Origin: Octopus vulgaris
Lineage: Eukaryota
Reading direction: 5' to 3'
Assembly (NCBI GenBank): GCA_951406725.2
Contig: OX597833.1
Location: forward strand, 64,480,001-64,544,000
DNA: 64,000 bases
Shown: piece by piece, positions 3,324 to 55,741 of the stretch
Layout: the number at the start of each line of letters is the position of its first letter
How positions within the stretch are numbered: the stretch's first letter is position 1
Position numbers and translations under genes: made by a program
Notes under the pieces: generated by a model
Told to the model about the DNA's origin: nothing
The model's input: the letters and a program-made list of their open reading frames with translations, nothing else
Database searches by the model: none

Positions 3324-3574
3324 TGGAGTAAACACATAAATGTGAAACAAGGTGGAAAAAAAGAGTACTCAAATACCAGTGGTAGAGTAATATGCTTTAT
3401 TTAAAGCAGCAGAAAATTCAACAAAATCTGTACTAGTTCTCGTTGCCGTTCATCAGACAGTTTTTGCTAGAATAGAACCGATATCGGTTCCATTCTACCA
3501 AAAACTGTCTGATGAACGGCAACGAGAAACTCAGAGTAACAAATTTTGTCGGATTTTCTGCTGCTTTAAATAAA

Positions 3575-3575
<1 letters not shown>
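3322..3575. mobile_element. Palindromic Penelope-like terminal fragment with minimal hammerhead motifs
   Basis: Imperfect palindrome 3395-3575 centred on CCGATATCGG. CTGATGA..GAAACTCAGAGTA at 3509-3538 with a damaged mirror copy on the minus strand. Ends in AATAAA; (TA)n flanks. Confidence 0.6.
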
Positions 3576-3613
<38 letters not shown>

Positions 3614-38118: not shown

Positions 38119-39444
38119 ATTTTATCGACCCTAGAAGGGAGGAAATATTAAACAGACTCCGGCGTGATTAGAAATCTGAACGTAAAGTGACACAACAATG
38201 TAATATCCAAATTTTCTATAATGGATGGTATCCCAACCGTGACTCTCACGTTTGTTTAATTGTCTATCATCATCTAAATGCTCATTTTATCGACACTAGA
38301 AGGGAGGAAATATTAAACAGACTCCGGCGTGATTAGAAATCTGAACGTAAAGTGACACAACAATGTAATATCTAACTTTTCTATGGTGGATGGTATCCCA
38401 ACCGTGGCTCTCACGTTTGTTTAATTGTCTATCATCATCTAAATGCTCATTTTATCGACCCTAGAAGGGAGGAAATATTAAATAGACGCAGGCGTGATTA
38501 GAAATCTGAACGTAAAGTGACACAACAATGTAATATCCAAATTTTCTATAATGGATGGTATCCCAACCGTGACTCTCACGTTTGTTTAATTGTCTATCAT
38601 CATCTAAATGCTCATTTTATCGACCCTAGAAGGGAGGAAATATTAAACAAACGCAGGCGTGATTAGAAATCTGAACGTAAAGTGACACAACAATGTAATA
38701 TCTAACTTTTCTATAATGGATGGTATCCCAACCGTGACTCTCACGTTTGTTTAATTGTCTATCATCATCTAAATGCTCATTTTATCGACCCTAGAAGGGA
38801 GGAAATATTAAACAAACGCCGGCGTGATTAGAAATCTGAACGTAAAGTGACACAACAATGTAATATCCAAATTTTCTATAATGGATGGTATCCCAACCGT
38901 GACTCTCACGTTTGTTTAATTGTCTATCATCATCTAAATGCTCATTTTATCGACCCTAGAAGGGAGGAAATATTAAACAAACGCCGGCGTGATTAGAAAT
39001 CTGAACGTAAAGTGACACAACAATGTAATATCCAAATTTTCTATAATGGATGGTATCCCAACCGTGACTCTCACGTTTGTTTAATTGTCTATCATCATCT
39101 AAATGCTCATTTTATCGACCCTAGAAGGGAGGAAATATTAAACAAACGCCGGCGTGATTAGAAATCTGAACGTAAAGTGACACAACAATGTAATATCCAA
39201 ATTTTCTATAATGGATGGTATCCCAACCGTGACTCTCACGTTTGTTTAATTGTCTATCATCATCTAAATGCTCATTTTATCGACCCTAGAAGGGAGGAAA
39301 TATTAAATAGACGCCGGCGTGATTAGAAATCTGAACGTAAAGTAACACAACAATGTAATATCGAAATTTTCTCTGAAGGATGGTATCCCAACCGTGGCCC
39401 CCGCGTTTGTTTAATTGTCTATCATCATCTAAATGCTCATTTTT
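38119..39444. repeat. 165-bp tandem repeat, 8 copies
   Basis: TTTATCGAC starts at 38121, 38286, 38451, 38616, 38781, 38946, 39111 and 39276; a few variants between copies. Confidence 0.95.
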
Positions 39445-41990: not shown

Positions 41991-42587
41991 AGGCGGCGAG
42001 CTGGCAGAAACGTTAGCATGCCGGGCGAAATGCGTAGCCGTATTTTGTCTGCCGTTACGTTCTGAGTTCAAATTCCGCCGAGGTCGACTTTGCATTTCAT
42101 TCTTCCGGGGTCGATAAATTAAGTACCATTTACGCACAGGGTTCGATGTAATCGATTTAATCCGTTTGTATGTCCTTGTTTGTCCCCTCTGTGTTTAGCC
42201 CCTTGTGGGTAGTAAAGGAATAGGTAATTCGTCTGCCGTTACGTTCTGAGTTCAAATTCCGCCAAAGTCGACTTTACGTTTCATCCTTTCGGGGTCGATT
42301 AAATAAGTATCAGTTAAGCACTGGGGTCGATGTAATCGATTTAATCCGTTTGTATATCCTTGTTTGTCCTCTCTTTGTTTAGCCCCTTGTGGGTAGTAAA
42401 GAAATAGGTATTTCGTCTGCCGTTACGTTCTGAGTTCAAATTCCGCCGAGGTCGACTTTGCCTTTCATCCTTTCGGGGTCGATTAAATAAGTACTAGTTG
42501 AACACTTGGGTCGATGTAATCGACTTAGTCCCATTGTCTGTCATATTTATCCCCTCTATGTTTAGCTTATTGTGGAGAATAAAGAAT
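41991..42587 (+). mobile_element. SINE family B trimer (one full unit plus two headless units)
   Basis: Repeat units restart at 42223 and 42407 (about 184 bp). Confidence 0.85.
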
Positions 42588-48249: not shown

Positions 48250-49040
48250 GCGGTGAGCTGGCAGAAACGTTAGCACGCCGGGCGAAATGCGTAGCCGTAT
48301 TTCGTCTGTCGTTACGTTCTGAGTTCAAATTCTGCCGAGGTCAACTTTGCCTTTCATCGTTTCGGGGTCGATAAATTAAGTACCAGTTACGCACTGGGGT
48401 CGATGTAATCGACGTAATCCCTTTGTCTGTTCTTGTTTGTCCTCTCTGTGTTTAGCCCCTTGTGGGTAGTAAAGAAATAGGTGTTTTGTCTGCCGCTACG
48501 TTCTGAGTTCAAATATCACCGAAGTCGAATTTGCCTTTCATCCTTTCGTGGTCGATTAAATAAGTACCAGTTACGCACTGGGGTAGTTATAATCGACTTT
48601 ATCCGTTTGTTTGTCCTTGTTTGTCCCCTGTATGTTTATCCTCTTGTGGGCAATAAAGAAATAAGAAACGTTAGCACGCCGGGCGAAATGTGTAGCCGAG
48701 TTCAAATTCCGCCAAGGTCGACTTTGTCTTTCATCCTTTAGGGGTCCATTAAATAAGTATCAGTCACGCACTGGGGTCGGTGTAATCGACTTAATCCGTG
48801 TGTCTGTCCTTGTTCGTCCTCTCTGTGTTTAGCCCCTTGTGGGTAGTAAAAAAATAGGTATTTCGTCTGTCGTTACGTTCTGAGTTCAAGTTCCGCCAAG
48901 GTCGACTTTGTCTTTCATCCTTTAGGGGTCCATTAAATAAGTATCAGTCACACACTGGGGTCGATGTAATCGACTTAATCCGTGTGTCTGTCCTTGTTTG
49001 TCCCTTCTGTGTTTAGCCCCTTGTGGGCAATAAATAAATA
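48250..49040 (+). mobile_element. SINE family B tetramer with 14-bp target-site duplication
   Basis: Units at 48250, 48480, 48664 and 48857; TATAATCCTCTAAG at 48230-48243 and 49041-49054. Confidence 0.85.
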
Positions 49041-49649: not shown

Positions 49650-49650
<1 letters not shown>

Positions 49651-49793
49651 TTTATTTAAAAGCAGCCGAAATTCAACAAAACCTGTTACTCGGAGTTTCG
49701 CATTCCCGTTCGTCAGAGTGTTTTGTTACAATTTACCCCTGGAATCTGAATACTCTTTTTTCCACCTTGTTTCACATTTATGTGTTTACTCCG

Positions 49794-49797
<4 letters not shown>
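49650..49797 (-). mobile_element. Rearranged one-armed copy of the same Penelope-like fragment
   Basis: Shares the GGAGTAAACACATAAATGTGAAACAAGG block and CTGACGA..GAAACTCCGAGTAACAGG on the minus strand; (TA)n flanks. Confidence 0.55.
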
Positions 49798-49865
<68 letters not shown>

Positions 49866-50010
49866 CACCGTGATCACCCTGACCGACCAGGCTATCAGAT
49901 GTTACTACACATATCTGGTCACAGTGCGTTTCGCATTGTATTACCCGTCAAATGACGCACCCCGCTGGCTAAGCGAGCAGGCCAACAGAAGTAAGAGTGA
50001 GTGAAAGTTA

Positions 50011-50468
50011 TCAAGGACGACAGGAAGCGTTGATGCTTTCTAGGGCTAAATAGCGGTGGATATAATTCCCTTTATGGGACTGTCACATTAAGTTGGCAGT
50101 ATACTACTGCTCTATCGTACCACCACAGCTTATATCTCTCTGAGATATTTAGAAATTTAATATTTCTCTTTTTTGTGATCAGTGAATTTACTTCACTGAA
50201 ATTATATATGTTTACAAAGTCTAGACAGGTATCTGCAGCCGACTAGCAAGCCATGCAACTCCAGACTGATGACGAGCAAGAGTCAGAAACTAGTCCCTGG
50301 GTGCAGGCTTGGCTGGATGGGGGTACTTGTCTCCTCCTTATAAGCATAAGGACACAGGAAATGTGTCAAGGCCGACAGGGAGCGTTGATGGTTCCTAGGG
50401 CTAAATAGCGATGGTGTGATTCCCTTTATCGGACTGCCACGTTAAGTTGACAGTATACAACTGCTTTC
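50011..50468 (+). mobile_element. Older ~355-bp repeat (about 1.3 copies) containing a hammerhead; putative second retrozyme family
   Basis: 50011-50113 is repeated with divergence at 50366-50468 (period 355). A hammerhead motif and several hairpins lie between the copies. Confidence 0.65.
50223..50332 (+). ncRNA. Type I hammerhead ribozyme (partly decayed) with long stem I
   Basis: CTGATGA 50266-50272, GAAA 50286-50289, palindromic stem III ACTAGT, GUC site (cut after 50295). Stem I segments CCAG/CTGG, TGCA/TGCA, AAGCC/GGCTT, CAGCC/GGCTG, AGACAGGTAT/GTACTTGTCT. Stem II is weak and an A/C mismatch lies next to the core. Confidence 0.7.
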
Positions 50469-50496
50469 TCTCTCTATCTCTTTCTATATATATATA

Positions 50497-50876
50497 CTAG
50501 CAGTATCGCCCGGCGTTGCTCAGGTTTGTAAGGGAAATAACTATAAAGCATTTTTAGAGAGTTATAGCCAAAAAATGGAAAAAAATGATGGTAAATTTTT
50601 TTTGAGATTAAAAAAAGGTTGAGTTGCGTCCCCTAGACAGTTTGTGGTTTGTGTTTCTGCTTCTCGACCCCATGTCGAATTTATCGATTTTTTTCTGAAC
50701 TGGGGGAACTTTTCAAAATTTTCGCTGCGTTAGTTTTGAATTATGACATTGGGCTATGTGTGTGTCAAGTTTCATCAGAATCGGTTGAAAGCCGTGGTCA
50801 GGGTGAGGGTACAAGCAAACAGACACACAGAAACACACACAGACAAACTGCCGTTTATATATATATATATATATAT
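50497..50876 (-). mobile_element. Non-autonomous Helitron with the same 3' end as 46342-46739
   Basis: Shared CTAGCAGTATCGCCCGGCGTTGCTC..GGGAAATAACTATA terminus; different interior; 5' end merges with (TA)n. Confidence 0.7.
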
Positions 50877-51387: not shown

Positions 51388-51436
<49 letters not shown>

Positions 51437-51554
51437 CAATTAAGGAACGGCCATAATAGGCCATTCACCCACTAGAAATAACAGCCAAAGCTTCTACCGC
51501 AAATAAAGATCAATTCCGTAAACAGGAGAAAATTAAAAAAACATTTACCCTGTA

Positions 51555-54086
51555 ATTTCTTGTACGGTATACCGTTTCATCTGCTGTTTAATGGTAAACT
51601 AACCTGATTAAATTAAATCAAGCCAATCTTCCATAAGCCCTCAGATTCTTCAGCAAGAAATAGCTCAAGTCGGAACAGATATTTACACGAGGCATACCCA
51701 ATCCTGCCAAGGCAATATCTGACCTAAAATTTTCAAATCGTCGCACTCGCGCCAAATTTATCGGCAGCAAATAAATCGTCGATTCCATTACGGAATTAAC
51801 CAAAAAATTCATAATTAATCAATATAGGGTGGCAAGGAAAATTTTGTAGAATTTTTTTGCCACCAGCGGCCCAGTGGGAAAAAATTAAATAGTCATAGAC
51901 CATTTTTAAGTTCAACATTAACAATTAAGGAACGGCCATAATAGGCCATTCACCCACTAGAAATAACAGCCAAAGCTTCTACCGCAAATAAAGATCAATT
52001 CCGTAAACAGGAGAAAATTAAAAAAACATTTACCCTGTAATTTCTTGTACGGTATACCGTTTCATCTGCTGTTTAATGGTAAACTAACCTGATTAAATTA
52101 AATCAAGCCAATCTTCCATAAGCCCTCAGATTCTTCAGCAAGAAATAGCTCAAGTCGGAACAGATATTTACACGAGGCATACCCAATCCTGCCAAGGCAA
52201 TATCTGACCTAAAATTTTCAAATCGTCGCACTCGCGCCAAATTTATCGGCAGCAAATAAATCGTCGATTCCATTACGGAATTAACCAAAAAATTCATAAT
52301 TAATCAATATAGGGTGGCAAGGAAAATTTTGTAGAATTTTTTTGCCACCAGCGGCCCAGTGGGAAAAAATTAAATAGTCATAGACCATTTTTAAGTTCAA
52401 CATTAACAATTAAGGAACGGCCATAATAGGCCATTCACCCACTAGAAATAACAGCCAAAGCTTCTACCGCAAATAAAGATCAATTCCGTAAACAGGAGAA
52501 AATTAAAAAAACATTTACCCTGTAATTTCTTGTACGGTATACCGTTTCATCTGCTGTTTAATGGTAAACTAACCTGATTAAATTAAATCAAGCCAATCTT
52601 CCATAAGCCCTCAGATTCTTCAGCAAGAAATAGCTCAAGTCGGAACAGATATTTACACGAGGCATACCCAATCCTGCCAAGGCAATATCTGACCTAAAAT
52701 TTTCAAATCGTCGCACTCGCGCCAAATTTATCGGCAGCAAATAAATCGTCGATTCCATTACGGAATTAACCAAAAAATTCATAATTAATCAATATAGGGT
52801 GGCAAGGAAAATTTTGTAGAATTTTTTTGCCACCAGCGGCCCAGTGGGAAAAAATTAAATAGTCATAGACCATTTTTAAGTTCAACATTAACAATTAAGG
52901 AACGGCCATAATAGGCCATTCACCCACTAGAAATAACAGCCAAAGCTTCTACCGCAAATAAAGATCAATTCCGTAAACAGGAGAAAATTAAAAAAACATT
53001 TACCCTGTAATTTCTTGTACGGTATACCGTTTCATCTGCTGTTTAATGGTAAACTAACCTGATTAAATTAAATCAAGCCAATCTTCCATAAGCCCTCAGA
53101 TTCTTCAGCAAGAAATAGCTCAAGTCGGAACAGATATTTACACGAGGCATACCCAATCCTGCCAAGGCAATATCTGACCTAAAATTTTCAAATCGTCGCA
53201 CTCGCGCCAAATTTATCGGCAGCAAATAAATCGTCGATTCCATTACGGAATTAACCAAAAAATTCATAATTAATCAATATAGGGTGGCAAGGAAAATTTT
53301 GTAGAATTTTTTTGCCACCAGCGGCCCAGTGGGAAAAAATTAAATAGTCATAGACCATTTTTAAGTTCAACATTAACAATTAAGGAACGGCCATAATAGG
53401 CCATTCACCCACTAGAAATAACAGCCAAAGCTTCTACCGCAAATAAAGATCAATTCCGTAAACAGGAGAAAATTAAAAAAACATTTACCCTGTAATTTCT
53501 TGTACGGTATACCGTTTCATCTGCTGTTTAATGGTAAACTAACCTGATTAAATTAAATCAAGCCAATCTTCCATAAGCCCTCAGATTCTTCAGCAAGAAA
53601 TAGCTCAAGTCGGAACAGATATTTACACGAGGCATACCCAATCCTGCCAAGGCAATATCTGACCTAAAATTTTCAAATCGTCGCACTCGCGCCAAATTTA
53701 TCGGCAGCAAATAAATCGTCGATTCCATTACGGAATTAACCAAAAAATTCATAATTAATCAATATAGGGTGGCAAGGAAAATTTTGTAGAATTTTTTTGC
53801 CACCAGCGGCCCAGTGGGAAAAAATTAAATAGTCATAGACCATTTTTAAGTTCAACATTAACAATTAAGGAACGGCCATAATAGGCCATTCACCCACTAG
53901 AAATAACAGCCAAAGCTTCTACCGCAAATAAAGATCAATTCCGTAAACAGGAGAAAATTAAAAAAACATTTACCCTGTAATTTCTTGTACGGTATACCGT
54001 TTCATCTGCTGTTTAATGGTAAACTAACCTGATTAAATTAAATCAAGCCAATCTTCCATAAGCCCTCAGATTCTTCAGCAAGAAAT
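51555..54086 (-). ncRNA. Six minus-strand copies of the same hammerhead: 51555-51661, 52040-52146, 52525-52631, 53010-53116, 53495-53601, 53980-54086
   Basis: Reverse complement of the 54388-54494 motif, repeated every 485 bp in the inverted part of the array. Confidence 0.88.
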
Positions 54087-54387
54087 AGCTCAAGTCGGAA
54101 CAGATATTTACACGAGGCATACCCTTGTTAATGTTGAACTTAAAAATGGTCTATGACTATTTAATTTTTTCCCACTGGGCCGCTGGTGGCAAAAAAATTC
54201 TACAAAATTTTCCTTGCCACCCTATATTGATTAATTATGAATTTTTTGGTTAATTCCGTAATGGAATCGACGATTTATTTGCTGCCGATAAATTTGGCGC
54301 GAGTGCGACGATTTGAAAATTTTAGGTCAGATATTGCCTTGGCAGGATTGGGTATGCCTCGTGTAAATATCTGTTCCGACTTGAGCT

Positions 54388-54494
54388 ATTTCTTGCTGAA
54401 GAATCTGAGGGCTTATGGAAGATTGGCTTGATTTAATTTAATCAGGTTAGTTTACCATTAAACAGCAGATGAAACGGTATACCGTACAAGAAAT
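54388..54494 (+). ncRNA. Type I hammerhead ribozyme with extended stem II
   Basis: Stem I ATTTCTTG (54388-54395)/CAAGAAAT (54487-54494); core CTGAAGA (54396-54402); stem II ATCTG (54403-54407)/CAGAT (54466-54470); GAAA (54471-54474); stem III A-CGG-TATA-CCG-T; cleavage triplet GUA, predicted cut after 54486. Confidence 0.88.
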
Positions 54495-54872
54495 TACAGG
54501 GTAAATGTTTTTTTAATTTTCTCCTGTTTACGGAATTGATCTTTATTTGCGGTAGAAGCTTTGGCTGTTATTTCTAGTGGGTGAATGGCCTATTATGGCC
54601 GTTCCTTAATTGTTAATGTTGAACTTAAAAATGGTCTATGACTATTTAATTTTTTCCCACTGGGCCGCTGGTGGCAAAAAAATTCTACAAAATTTTCCTT
54701 GCCACCCTATATTGATTAATTATGAATTTTTTGGTTAATTCCGTAATGGAATCGACGATTTATTTGCTGCCGATAAATTTGGCGCGAGTGCGACGATTTG
54801 AAAATTTTAGGTCAGATATTGCCTTGGCAGGATTGGGTATGCCTCGTGTAAATATCTGTTCCGACTTGAGCT

Positions 54873-54979
54873 ATTTCTTGCTGAAGAATCTGAGGGCTTA
54901 TGGAAGATTGGCTTGATTTAATTTAATCAGGTTAGTTTACCATTAAACAGCAGATGAAACGGTATACCGTACAAGAAAT
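54873..54979 (+). ncRNA. Type I hammerhead ribozyme (array copy)
   Basis: Identical to 54388-54494, offset +485. Confidence 0.88.
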
Positions 54980-55357
54980 TACAGGGTAAATGTTTTTTTA
55001 ATTTTCTCCTGTTTACGGAATTGATCTTTATTTGCGGTAGAAGCTTTGGCTGTTATTTCTAGTGGGTGAATGGCCTATTATGGCCGTTCCTTAATTGTTA
55101 ATGTTGAACTTAAAAATGGTCTATGACTATTTAATTTTTTCCCACTGGGCCGCTGGTGGCAAAAAAATTCTACAAAATTTTCCTTGCCACCCTATATTGA
55201 TTAATTATGAATTTTTTGGTTAATTCCGTAATGGAATCGACGATTTATTTGCTGCCGATAAATTTGGCGCGAGTGCGACGATTTGAAAATTTTAGGTCAG
55301 ATATTGCCTTGGCAGGATTGGGTATGCCTCGTGTAAATATCTGTTCCGACTTGAGCT

Positions 55358-55464
55358 ATTTCTTGCTGAAGAATCTGAGGGCTTATGGAAGATTGGCTTG
55401 ATTTAATTTAATCAGGTTAGTTTACCATTAAACAGCAGATGAAACGGTATACCGTACAAGAAAT
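55358..55464 (+). ncRNA. Type I hammerhead ribozyme (array copy)
   Basis: Identical to 54388-54494, offset +970. Confidence 0.88.
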
Positions 55465-55684
55465 TACAGGGTAAATGTTTTTTTAATTTTCTCCTGTTTA
55501 CGGAATTGATCTTTATTTGCGGTAGAAGCTTTGGCTGTTATTTCTAGTGGGTGAATGGCCTATTATGGCCGTTCCTTAATTGTTAATGTTGAACTTATAA
55601 ATGGTCTATGACTATTTAATTTTTTCCCACTGGGCCGCTGGTGGCAAAAAAATTCTACAAAATTTTCCTTGCCACCCTATATTG

Positions 55685-55741
<57 letters not shown>

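Follow-up and report, generated by a model that had tools for sequence, protein, structure and literature searches.

The window, a 64,000-nt stretch of Octopus vulgaris contig OX597833.1, carries a diverged direct repeat: the segments at 50003-50111 and 50358-50466 align locally with a score of 136, where 200 shuffles reached 26 at most, and BLAST returns 101 nt at 87% identity with a period of 355. An initial annotation of this DNA had reported the repeat and its period, and both are borne out, as is every motif that it named, each found in its place (Table 1). The 355-nt unit contains no ATG-initiated ORF longer than 51 aa in either strand, even when read as a circle; its register is that of the window copy, 50011 being a truncation point and no natural unit boundary. 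Within the unit lies a predicted type I hammerhead, with CTGATGA at 50266, GAAA at 50286 and the palindrome ACTAGT at 50289-50294, in which cleavage would follow GUC, at 50295. Folding gives a stem I of ~43 nt, close to the ~45 nt originally proposed, and the base of stem II in this core is a C.A opposition. Two changes private to the window copy, at 50282 and 50296, break stem II and the first stem I pair, respectively.

Table 1. Features of the window copy, in window coordinates.
Feature	Position	Strand	Basis or remark
Full 355-nt unit	50011..50365	+	Register set by the 5' truncation of the window copy
Second, partial unit (unit positions 1-103)	50366..50468	+	Ends at family end site A
End site A, first copy (unit position ~104)	50095..50115	+	Arm-end counts
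Optional ~53-nt tail	50115..50168	+	Ends at site B (unit position ~157)
Hairpin TCAGTGAA/TTCACTGA	50179..50199 (arms at 50179/50192)	+	Motif positions
Extended stem I, 5' strand	50223..50265	+	Fold and pair counts
Predicted type I hammerhead core	50266..50295	+	CUGAUGA, 3-bp stem II, GAAA, helix III ACUAGU
Extended stem I, 3' strand	50296..50332	+	Fold
Hairpin GACACA/TGTGTC, spanning the unit junction	50351..50367 (arms at 50351/50362)	+	
(TC)n(TA)n microsatellite, 3' junction	50469..50497	+	

The initial annotation had asked whether a family consensus would restore the two broken pairs, and it does: among 106 family copies, counted with the window copy left out, 104 have A-U as the first stem I pair and 88 have GAG/CUC as stem II. 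Because family copies keep both pairs, the changes at 50282 and 50296 represent private decay; contigs from presumed-RNA runs likewise read the family base at 50282. The CUGAUGA core is present in 94 of the 106 copies and the UC of the cut triplet in 104. Helix III is palindromic in 100 of them, and in 98 of 100 among the first genome matches listed, as one of two palindromes that form equally stable intermolecular duplexes, which single-change intermediates do not. The second palindrome marks one clade, indicating that it arose in a single event rather than many. Hammerheads with a short palindromic helix III are described as needing a second hammerhead for good cleavage (PMC4209133; PMC7229834).

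The CUGANGA and GAAA boxes, the NUH triplet and the C3-G8 pair of the predicted ribozyme are all canonical, with the last swapped for U3-A8 in a young sister family. The canonical G10.1-C11.1 pair before GAAA is absent, the base of stem II being C.A in 76 of the 106 copies and U-A in 27; sister subfamilies have U.U or A-U there. Subfamilies as little as ~60% identical retain the hammerhead fold, the U3-A8 swap included. In a 32-row alignment, 91% of the cells are paired and both sides differ in 17 of the 36 pairs, a level reached in none of 500 shuffles. A single divergent row nevertheless accounts for many of the double-sided changes, and the same sequences had served to draw the structure. 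RNAalifold recovered stem I from this alignment but neither stem II nor the 3' hairpins, and an Rfam scan returned no hammerhead at the gathering score or at E ≤ 5. The TCAGTGAA/TTCACTGA hairpin is kept, with variation, in all six subfamily units compared, and when folded as a circle the window copy reached a z score of -4.2 and three other copies reached -5.7 to -9.1 (40 shuffles each).

A genome search with the unit gave 2706 first-look candidates; among the 40 that were scored, the closest other copy is 91% identical to that in the window. An exact 19-base motif has 340 matches in the genome and a looser core pattern identifies at least 539 intact cores, with none for the control pattern in either case. 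The long tandem arrays that had been suggested as a check are absent: tandem core pairs number seven, at six loci, and most copies are sub-monomer stubs. Tandems with two or more hammerheads therefore exist in the family but are rare, and the window copy has just one hammerhead. Among hammerhead-anchored copies, most are shorter than one unit and the longest measures 1044 nt (up to 2.9 units); solo arms exceed 360 nt in 25 of 70 cases, 18 of them from a set chosen for length. Arms longer than one unit wrap head-to-tail into the 355-nt family unit, and in long arms the flanks of the hammerhead always close into one 355-nt circle. Copies are dispersed over many contigs; their 3' ends are fixed and their 5' ends vary, and inversions and duplications occur among them. 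Features that the family shares with metazoan non-LTR retrozymes are a non-coding unit of 355 nt (class range ~150-450 nt), a predicted type I hammerhead, tandem copies, albeit rare ones, and a lack of LTRs. Contigs from presumed-RNA runs, compared with the window copy and a young-sister trimer, contain family-sequence fragments, whose ends, strand, level and circularity are unreadable from contigs. In the literature on octopus hammerheads, retrozymes, Penelope and Tx1 elements we found no description of the 355-nt family, which may have a Repbase or Dfam entry.

The ends of the copies are strongly patterned. Out of 124 hammerhead-anchored arm ends, 55 fall at unit positions 93-111 (site A) and 44 at 146-171 (site B), so that 99 occupy two fixed sites ~53 nt apart and downstream of the ribozyme, and three lie near the predicted cut site. 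Site B is the foot of an AGAAAT/ATTTCT hairpin. We found 47 head-to-head insertions, and in the 24 with both ends classifiable the combination was A+B in 22, B+B in two and A+A in none, an excess of A+B with a binomial p of ~2e-5; the remaining 23 have an arm that belongs to neither end class. When sampling was anchored on the 3' part instead, the predicted cut site was crossed by 46 of 70 arms and was the starting point of none. Flank duplications of at least 8 nt accompany 17 of 48 solo copies as compared with 0 of 48 permuted ones, approximately seven of the 17 being TA-repeat matches, and simple insertions often show 8-12-bp duplications at AT-rich sites. Additionally, microsatellites adjoin 54 of 126 family ends versus 332 of 5216 background positions. 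A transcription start suggested by an apparent pile-up of 5' ends at unit positions 226-245 is not supported in this sample, since only four of 70 free ends lie within 30 nt of the core, in a count from which LINE junctions and inversion joints had first been separated and in which the lenient aligner can over-extend.

Two end sites and A+B inverted pairs together constitute the known tail signature of Penelope-like elements (PLEs), in which the tail arises from two internal reverse-transcription start sites (PMC11167929) and sits on one of the inverted pLTRs (PMC3846280, PMC8557442). Sites A and B would correspond to the first and second reverse-transcription starts, judging from where the arms end. 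The family shares several traits with EN+ PLE insertions (PMC3846280, PMC8557442, PMC11167929): its 3' ends are fixed and lie downstream of a hammerhead, inverted insertions are joined head-to-head and may carry a tail on one arm, targets are AT-rich or (TA)n, and duplications measure 8-12 bp. Unlike these elements, it has no ORF, its unit closes on itself, and the tail measures 53-59 nt rather than 30-40 nt.

At the window copy, the (TC)n(TA)n tract at the 3' junction is likely the target site, and we infer that synthesis started at site A in this tract and ran for 1.3 units through the hammerhead junction. The copy lacks an inverted arm, and a search of its flanks revealed no target duplication. 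Its 5' end is joined head-to-head, with no spacer, to the 3' 144 nt of a SINE. Such a joint could have formed through an inverted PLE insertion in which a different RNA supplied the second arm, or through chance nesting accompanied by a deletion. The SINE part itself (49866-50009, minus strand) is the 3' half of an abundant ~310-nt SINE with a fixed end at (TA)n, whose head appears tRNA-like by eye. On the other side, another abundant repeat directly follows the microsatellite (50486-50800) and reaches very high depth in the presumed-RNA contigs.

The genome contains intact PLEs that encode a 781-aa protein with RT and GIY-YIG and that also display the optional-tail pattern; from their Cys linker we read them as Neptune-like. 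Besides the 781-aa RT-EN frame, the abundant intact form (L151-L157) has a U3-A8 hammerhead and, upstream, a separate ORF that reaches 479 aa at most; its ends lie in (TA)n, and its optional tail is ~40 nt long. Nearly all of the Neptune-like ends listed adjoin microsatellites, as opposed to 54/126 family ends; the different tail length and the weaker microsatellite bias make the family a poor match to this abundant PLE as a partner. A GIY-YIG search gave 6136 first-look candidates, of which 150 were scored and 46 PLE loci were examined, and none of these 46 has an end homologous to the 355-nt unit. The sole alignment clearly above shuffles (L158, score 69.5) lies outside the PLE, past its end, and appears to be a copy of a separate, distant repeat.

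We also searched five PLE proteins against 173 family loci (848 kb). Matches occurred in 10 of the 173, and in none was a PLE ORF joined upstream of the unit; the nearest same-strand upstream matches are 1.3-1.6 kb away, and one case at 574 nt is the PLE's own hammerhead. Likewise, among 71 free 5' flanks, five pairs share adjacent sequence, which is family sequence in two and a LINE 3' end in three. The attachment to coding elements that the initial annotation had weighed against its own reading was thus not found, with a fused Penelope ORF at 0/173 loci. The wrap-around of long copies, together with this lack of ORF fusions, indicates that we are dealing with a retrozyme and not with the end of some coding element. 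At four of the 173 loci (L010, L041, L073, L199), a retrozyme end is followed within ~600 nt by PLE fragments of the same strand, which may reflect a shared (TA)n target.

By the features examined, the family is a metazoan non-LTR retrozyme, for which self-cleavage and a circular RNA are predicted from sequence. We consider it probable (roughly 0.78) that the window copy is a dead, 5'-truncated member of this family, a 355-nt ORF-less hammerhead repeat likely inserted by a PLE reverse transcriptase/endonuclease. The view of this locus as a decayed 1.3-mer of a distinct retrozyme is supported by pairs restored in the family, head-to-tail wrapping and the lack of coding fusions. In the proposed cycle, a copy with two hammerheads would be transcribed, and its two weak predicted ribozymes would pair through their palindromic helix III and excise a monomer, which a host ligase would close into a circle. 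A PLE protein would then bind this RNA and cut AT-rich DNA, and the two DNA ends would prime cDNA internally, one of them at site A and the other at site B; synthesis would pass the hammerhead junction and stop after ~0.2 to 3 units. With one hammerhead, since mutated, the window copy would be unable to release a monomer or circle itself, and the rarity of tandem pairs (seven, against 539 cores) suggests that few source copies remain.

It is unlikely, although it is the strongest of the alternatives, that a PLE mobilized the element from an uncut linear multimer transcribed from the rare tandems, with the hammerhead weak or a passenger and no circle formed. Such a template would agree with the absence of 5' ends at the predicted cut site (0/70), with the non-canonical stem II base, and with reports that uncut RNA is the dominant in vitro substrate of an anole PLE (PMC11167929) and that one of nine Xenopus retrozyme dimers was cleaved in vitro (bioRxiv 10.64898/2026.07.22.740005). 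However, compensatory changes across subfamilies have preserved the core, the stems and the palindrome of helix III, which argues for selection on the ribozyme, and without a circle 5' truncation would shorten arrays in each round, yet the full unit has outlasted several waves. Less probable still is that a coding PLE left the repeats behind as detached ends (pLTR plus tail) and that partial tandems account for the wrap-around. The ends, tail, inversions and duplications do match PLE stubs, a palindromic helix III is a trait of PLE hammerheads (PMC4209133), and Xenopus retrozymes are reported to derive from pLTRs (bioRxiv 10.64898/2026.07.22.740005); nevertheless, the hammerhead flanks always close into a 355-nt circle and the PLE matches, seen in 10/173 loci, are never joined upstream, so that this reading is largely refuted in our sample. 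A satellite or local tandem duplication with a chance hammerhead-like motif, with which the missing Rfam match and the mere 1.3-mer in the window would agree, has a negligible probability and is refuted by dispersed, end-defined copies on many contigs and by control pattern counts of zero.

The reading as a retrozyme fits what is described for metazoan non-LTR retrozymes (PMC7229834), with which the family shares an ORF-less unit of ~350 nt (42% GC), a type I hammerhead whose palindromic helix III is short, duplications of more than 4 bp and coexistence with PLEs. Mussel retrozyme families in the same report measure 350-390 nt, and the axolotl HHR_Amex2 has a similarly weak stem II base (U.U). 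Unlike those retrozymes, the octopus family consists mainly of dispersed sub-monomers rather than arrays, and it is known here from genome sequence; we found no description of the two fixed internal end sites or the A+B inverted pairs in PMC7229834. Minimal PLE hammerheads (PMC4209133) likewise have a palindromic helix III for dimeric cleavage and an extra base after the CUGANGA box. The family differs from them in one more base before GAAA, which leaves C.A, U.U or A-U at the base of stem II, in a stem II of 3-4 bp and in a stem I of ~43 nt. We rejected a plant-type LTR retrozyme, which has type III hammerheads in LTRs and a 4-bp duplication, since the octopus element has a type I hammerhead, variable 5' ends and longer duplications.

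A link between PLEs and retrozymes was proposed in PMC7229834 and argued by homology for vertebrates (bioRxiv 10.64898/2026.07.22.740005), whose retrozymes also form monomer-rich families for which a PLE origin and mobilization were proposed. The Xenopus case in that preprint rests on co-occurrence and pLTR homology, whereas ours rests on insertion ends, with no homologous pLTR found. The mover of animal retrozymes has so far been argued from co-occurrence and pLTR homology, and the two-start PLE signature on the insertion ends of an ORF-less element would provide direct genomic support for the link. The family also offers a small natural RNA suited to studying PLE mobilization in trans, and our reading predicts which start site serves which end of the DNA break.

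Subfamilies differ in age, with mean within-group identities of 85% for the A-U type (four copies), 89% for the U.U type, and 90% and 93% for two C.A types. In a tree with at most 14 rows per group, the window copy belongs to the C.A clade and has an end branch of 0.075. The young sister family, with a 362-nt unit and a U3-A8 core, is 97% identical within and ~60% identical to the window copy, and gave 2734 first-look candidates. It also has two end sites, 59 nt apart, and A+B ends in 11 of 13 inverted loci, which were retrieved with a query demanding one B arm. Loci of this sister (L207-L231, e.g. L219:507-1795) carry the same helix III palindrome as the Neptune-like PLE.

About 1 kb away, the window contains a young array of a 485-nt unit (51434-55688) with a type I hammerhead that has a long stem II and lies on the minus strand of the left arm. 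Alignment of the 355-nt unit with the 485-nt unit scored 19 and 23, not above the shuffle means of 25, in agreement with the earlier statement that the two are not obviously similar. Identity to the window copy ranges from 72 to 91% among family copies (subfamily mean and maximum), versus 100% among 485-nt copies across many contigs, so that the description of the 355-nt family as older stands. The repeated waves of such elements that had been envisaged are supported by subfamilies of differing ages and by the 100%-identical 485-nt family.

Two families of AATAAA-ended elements insert 17-28 nt upstream of the hammerhead core in this lineage and its sisters. We take both of these LINE families to be Tx1-like; the second encodes endonuclease, RT and a zinc knuckle, and the first gave ORF1 matches only. 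In the first family, a hammerhead repeat follows directly at 20 of 30 loci (13 of this lineage, six of a sister family and one other), and at 7-9 further loci of the 30 a short target remnant and then another LINE follow. For the second family, it follows at 11-12 of the 19 loci having the 3' end. Host-repeat sequence upstream of the LINE could be identified at seven of 20 first-family loci, six with a visible duplication of up to ~15 nt, and at none of 16 second-family loci within the 7 kb examined. Insertions of this kind (L063, L106, L289-L339, L389-L424; none in the window) show 13-18-nt duplications, 18 nt in L106, and LINE-remnant-LINE tandems. Tx1 elements that target other transposons are known (PMC4494074). 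In L063:837-8166, two head-to-head LINE copies are each followed by the 3' part of a retrozyme, one ending at A and the other at B, an arrangement that possibly records a LINE-bearing retrozyme RNA moved whole by a PLE.

The spacing of end sites varies, from ~40 nt between the two ends of the Neptune-like PLE to 53 and 59 nt in this lineage and ~100 nt in the 485-nt family, where two arms of the window array end that far apart in the unit. We tentatively propose, at somewhat under even odds, that the RNA circle acts as a portable two-site PLE start cassette of fixed polarity, with one site per end of the DNA break, and that PLE, retrozyme and LINE form a three-tier system in which the lineage is in turn the fixed target of Tx1-like LINEs. 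Under this proposal, the difference in spacing between families means that the RNA, and not the protein, would determine it.

Further repeats were observed in the window and the sampled loci. A third hammerhead-bearing repeat family occurs at 49650-49796 (minus strand) and at ~3330-3580, with cores at 49716 (-) and 3509 (+), and a related fold-back copy is present in L125. Hammerhead repeats of further, more distant families have 3' motifs in common with this lineage (L296, L299, L306, L308, L311, L317, L321, L297 and L158:5540-5770). Tandem arrays at 38119-39443, 42040-42566 and 48300-49040 have periods of 165 nt (eight copies) and 184 nt (SINE-like units).
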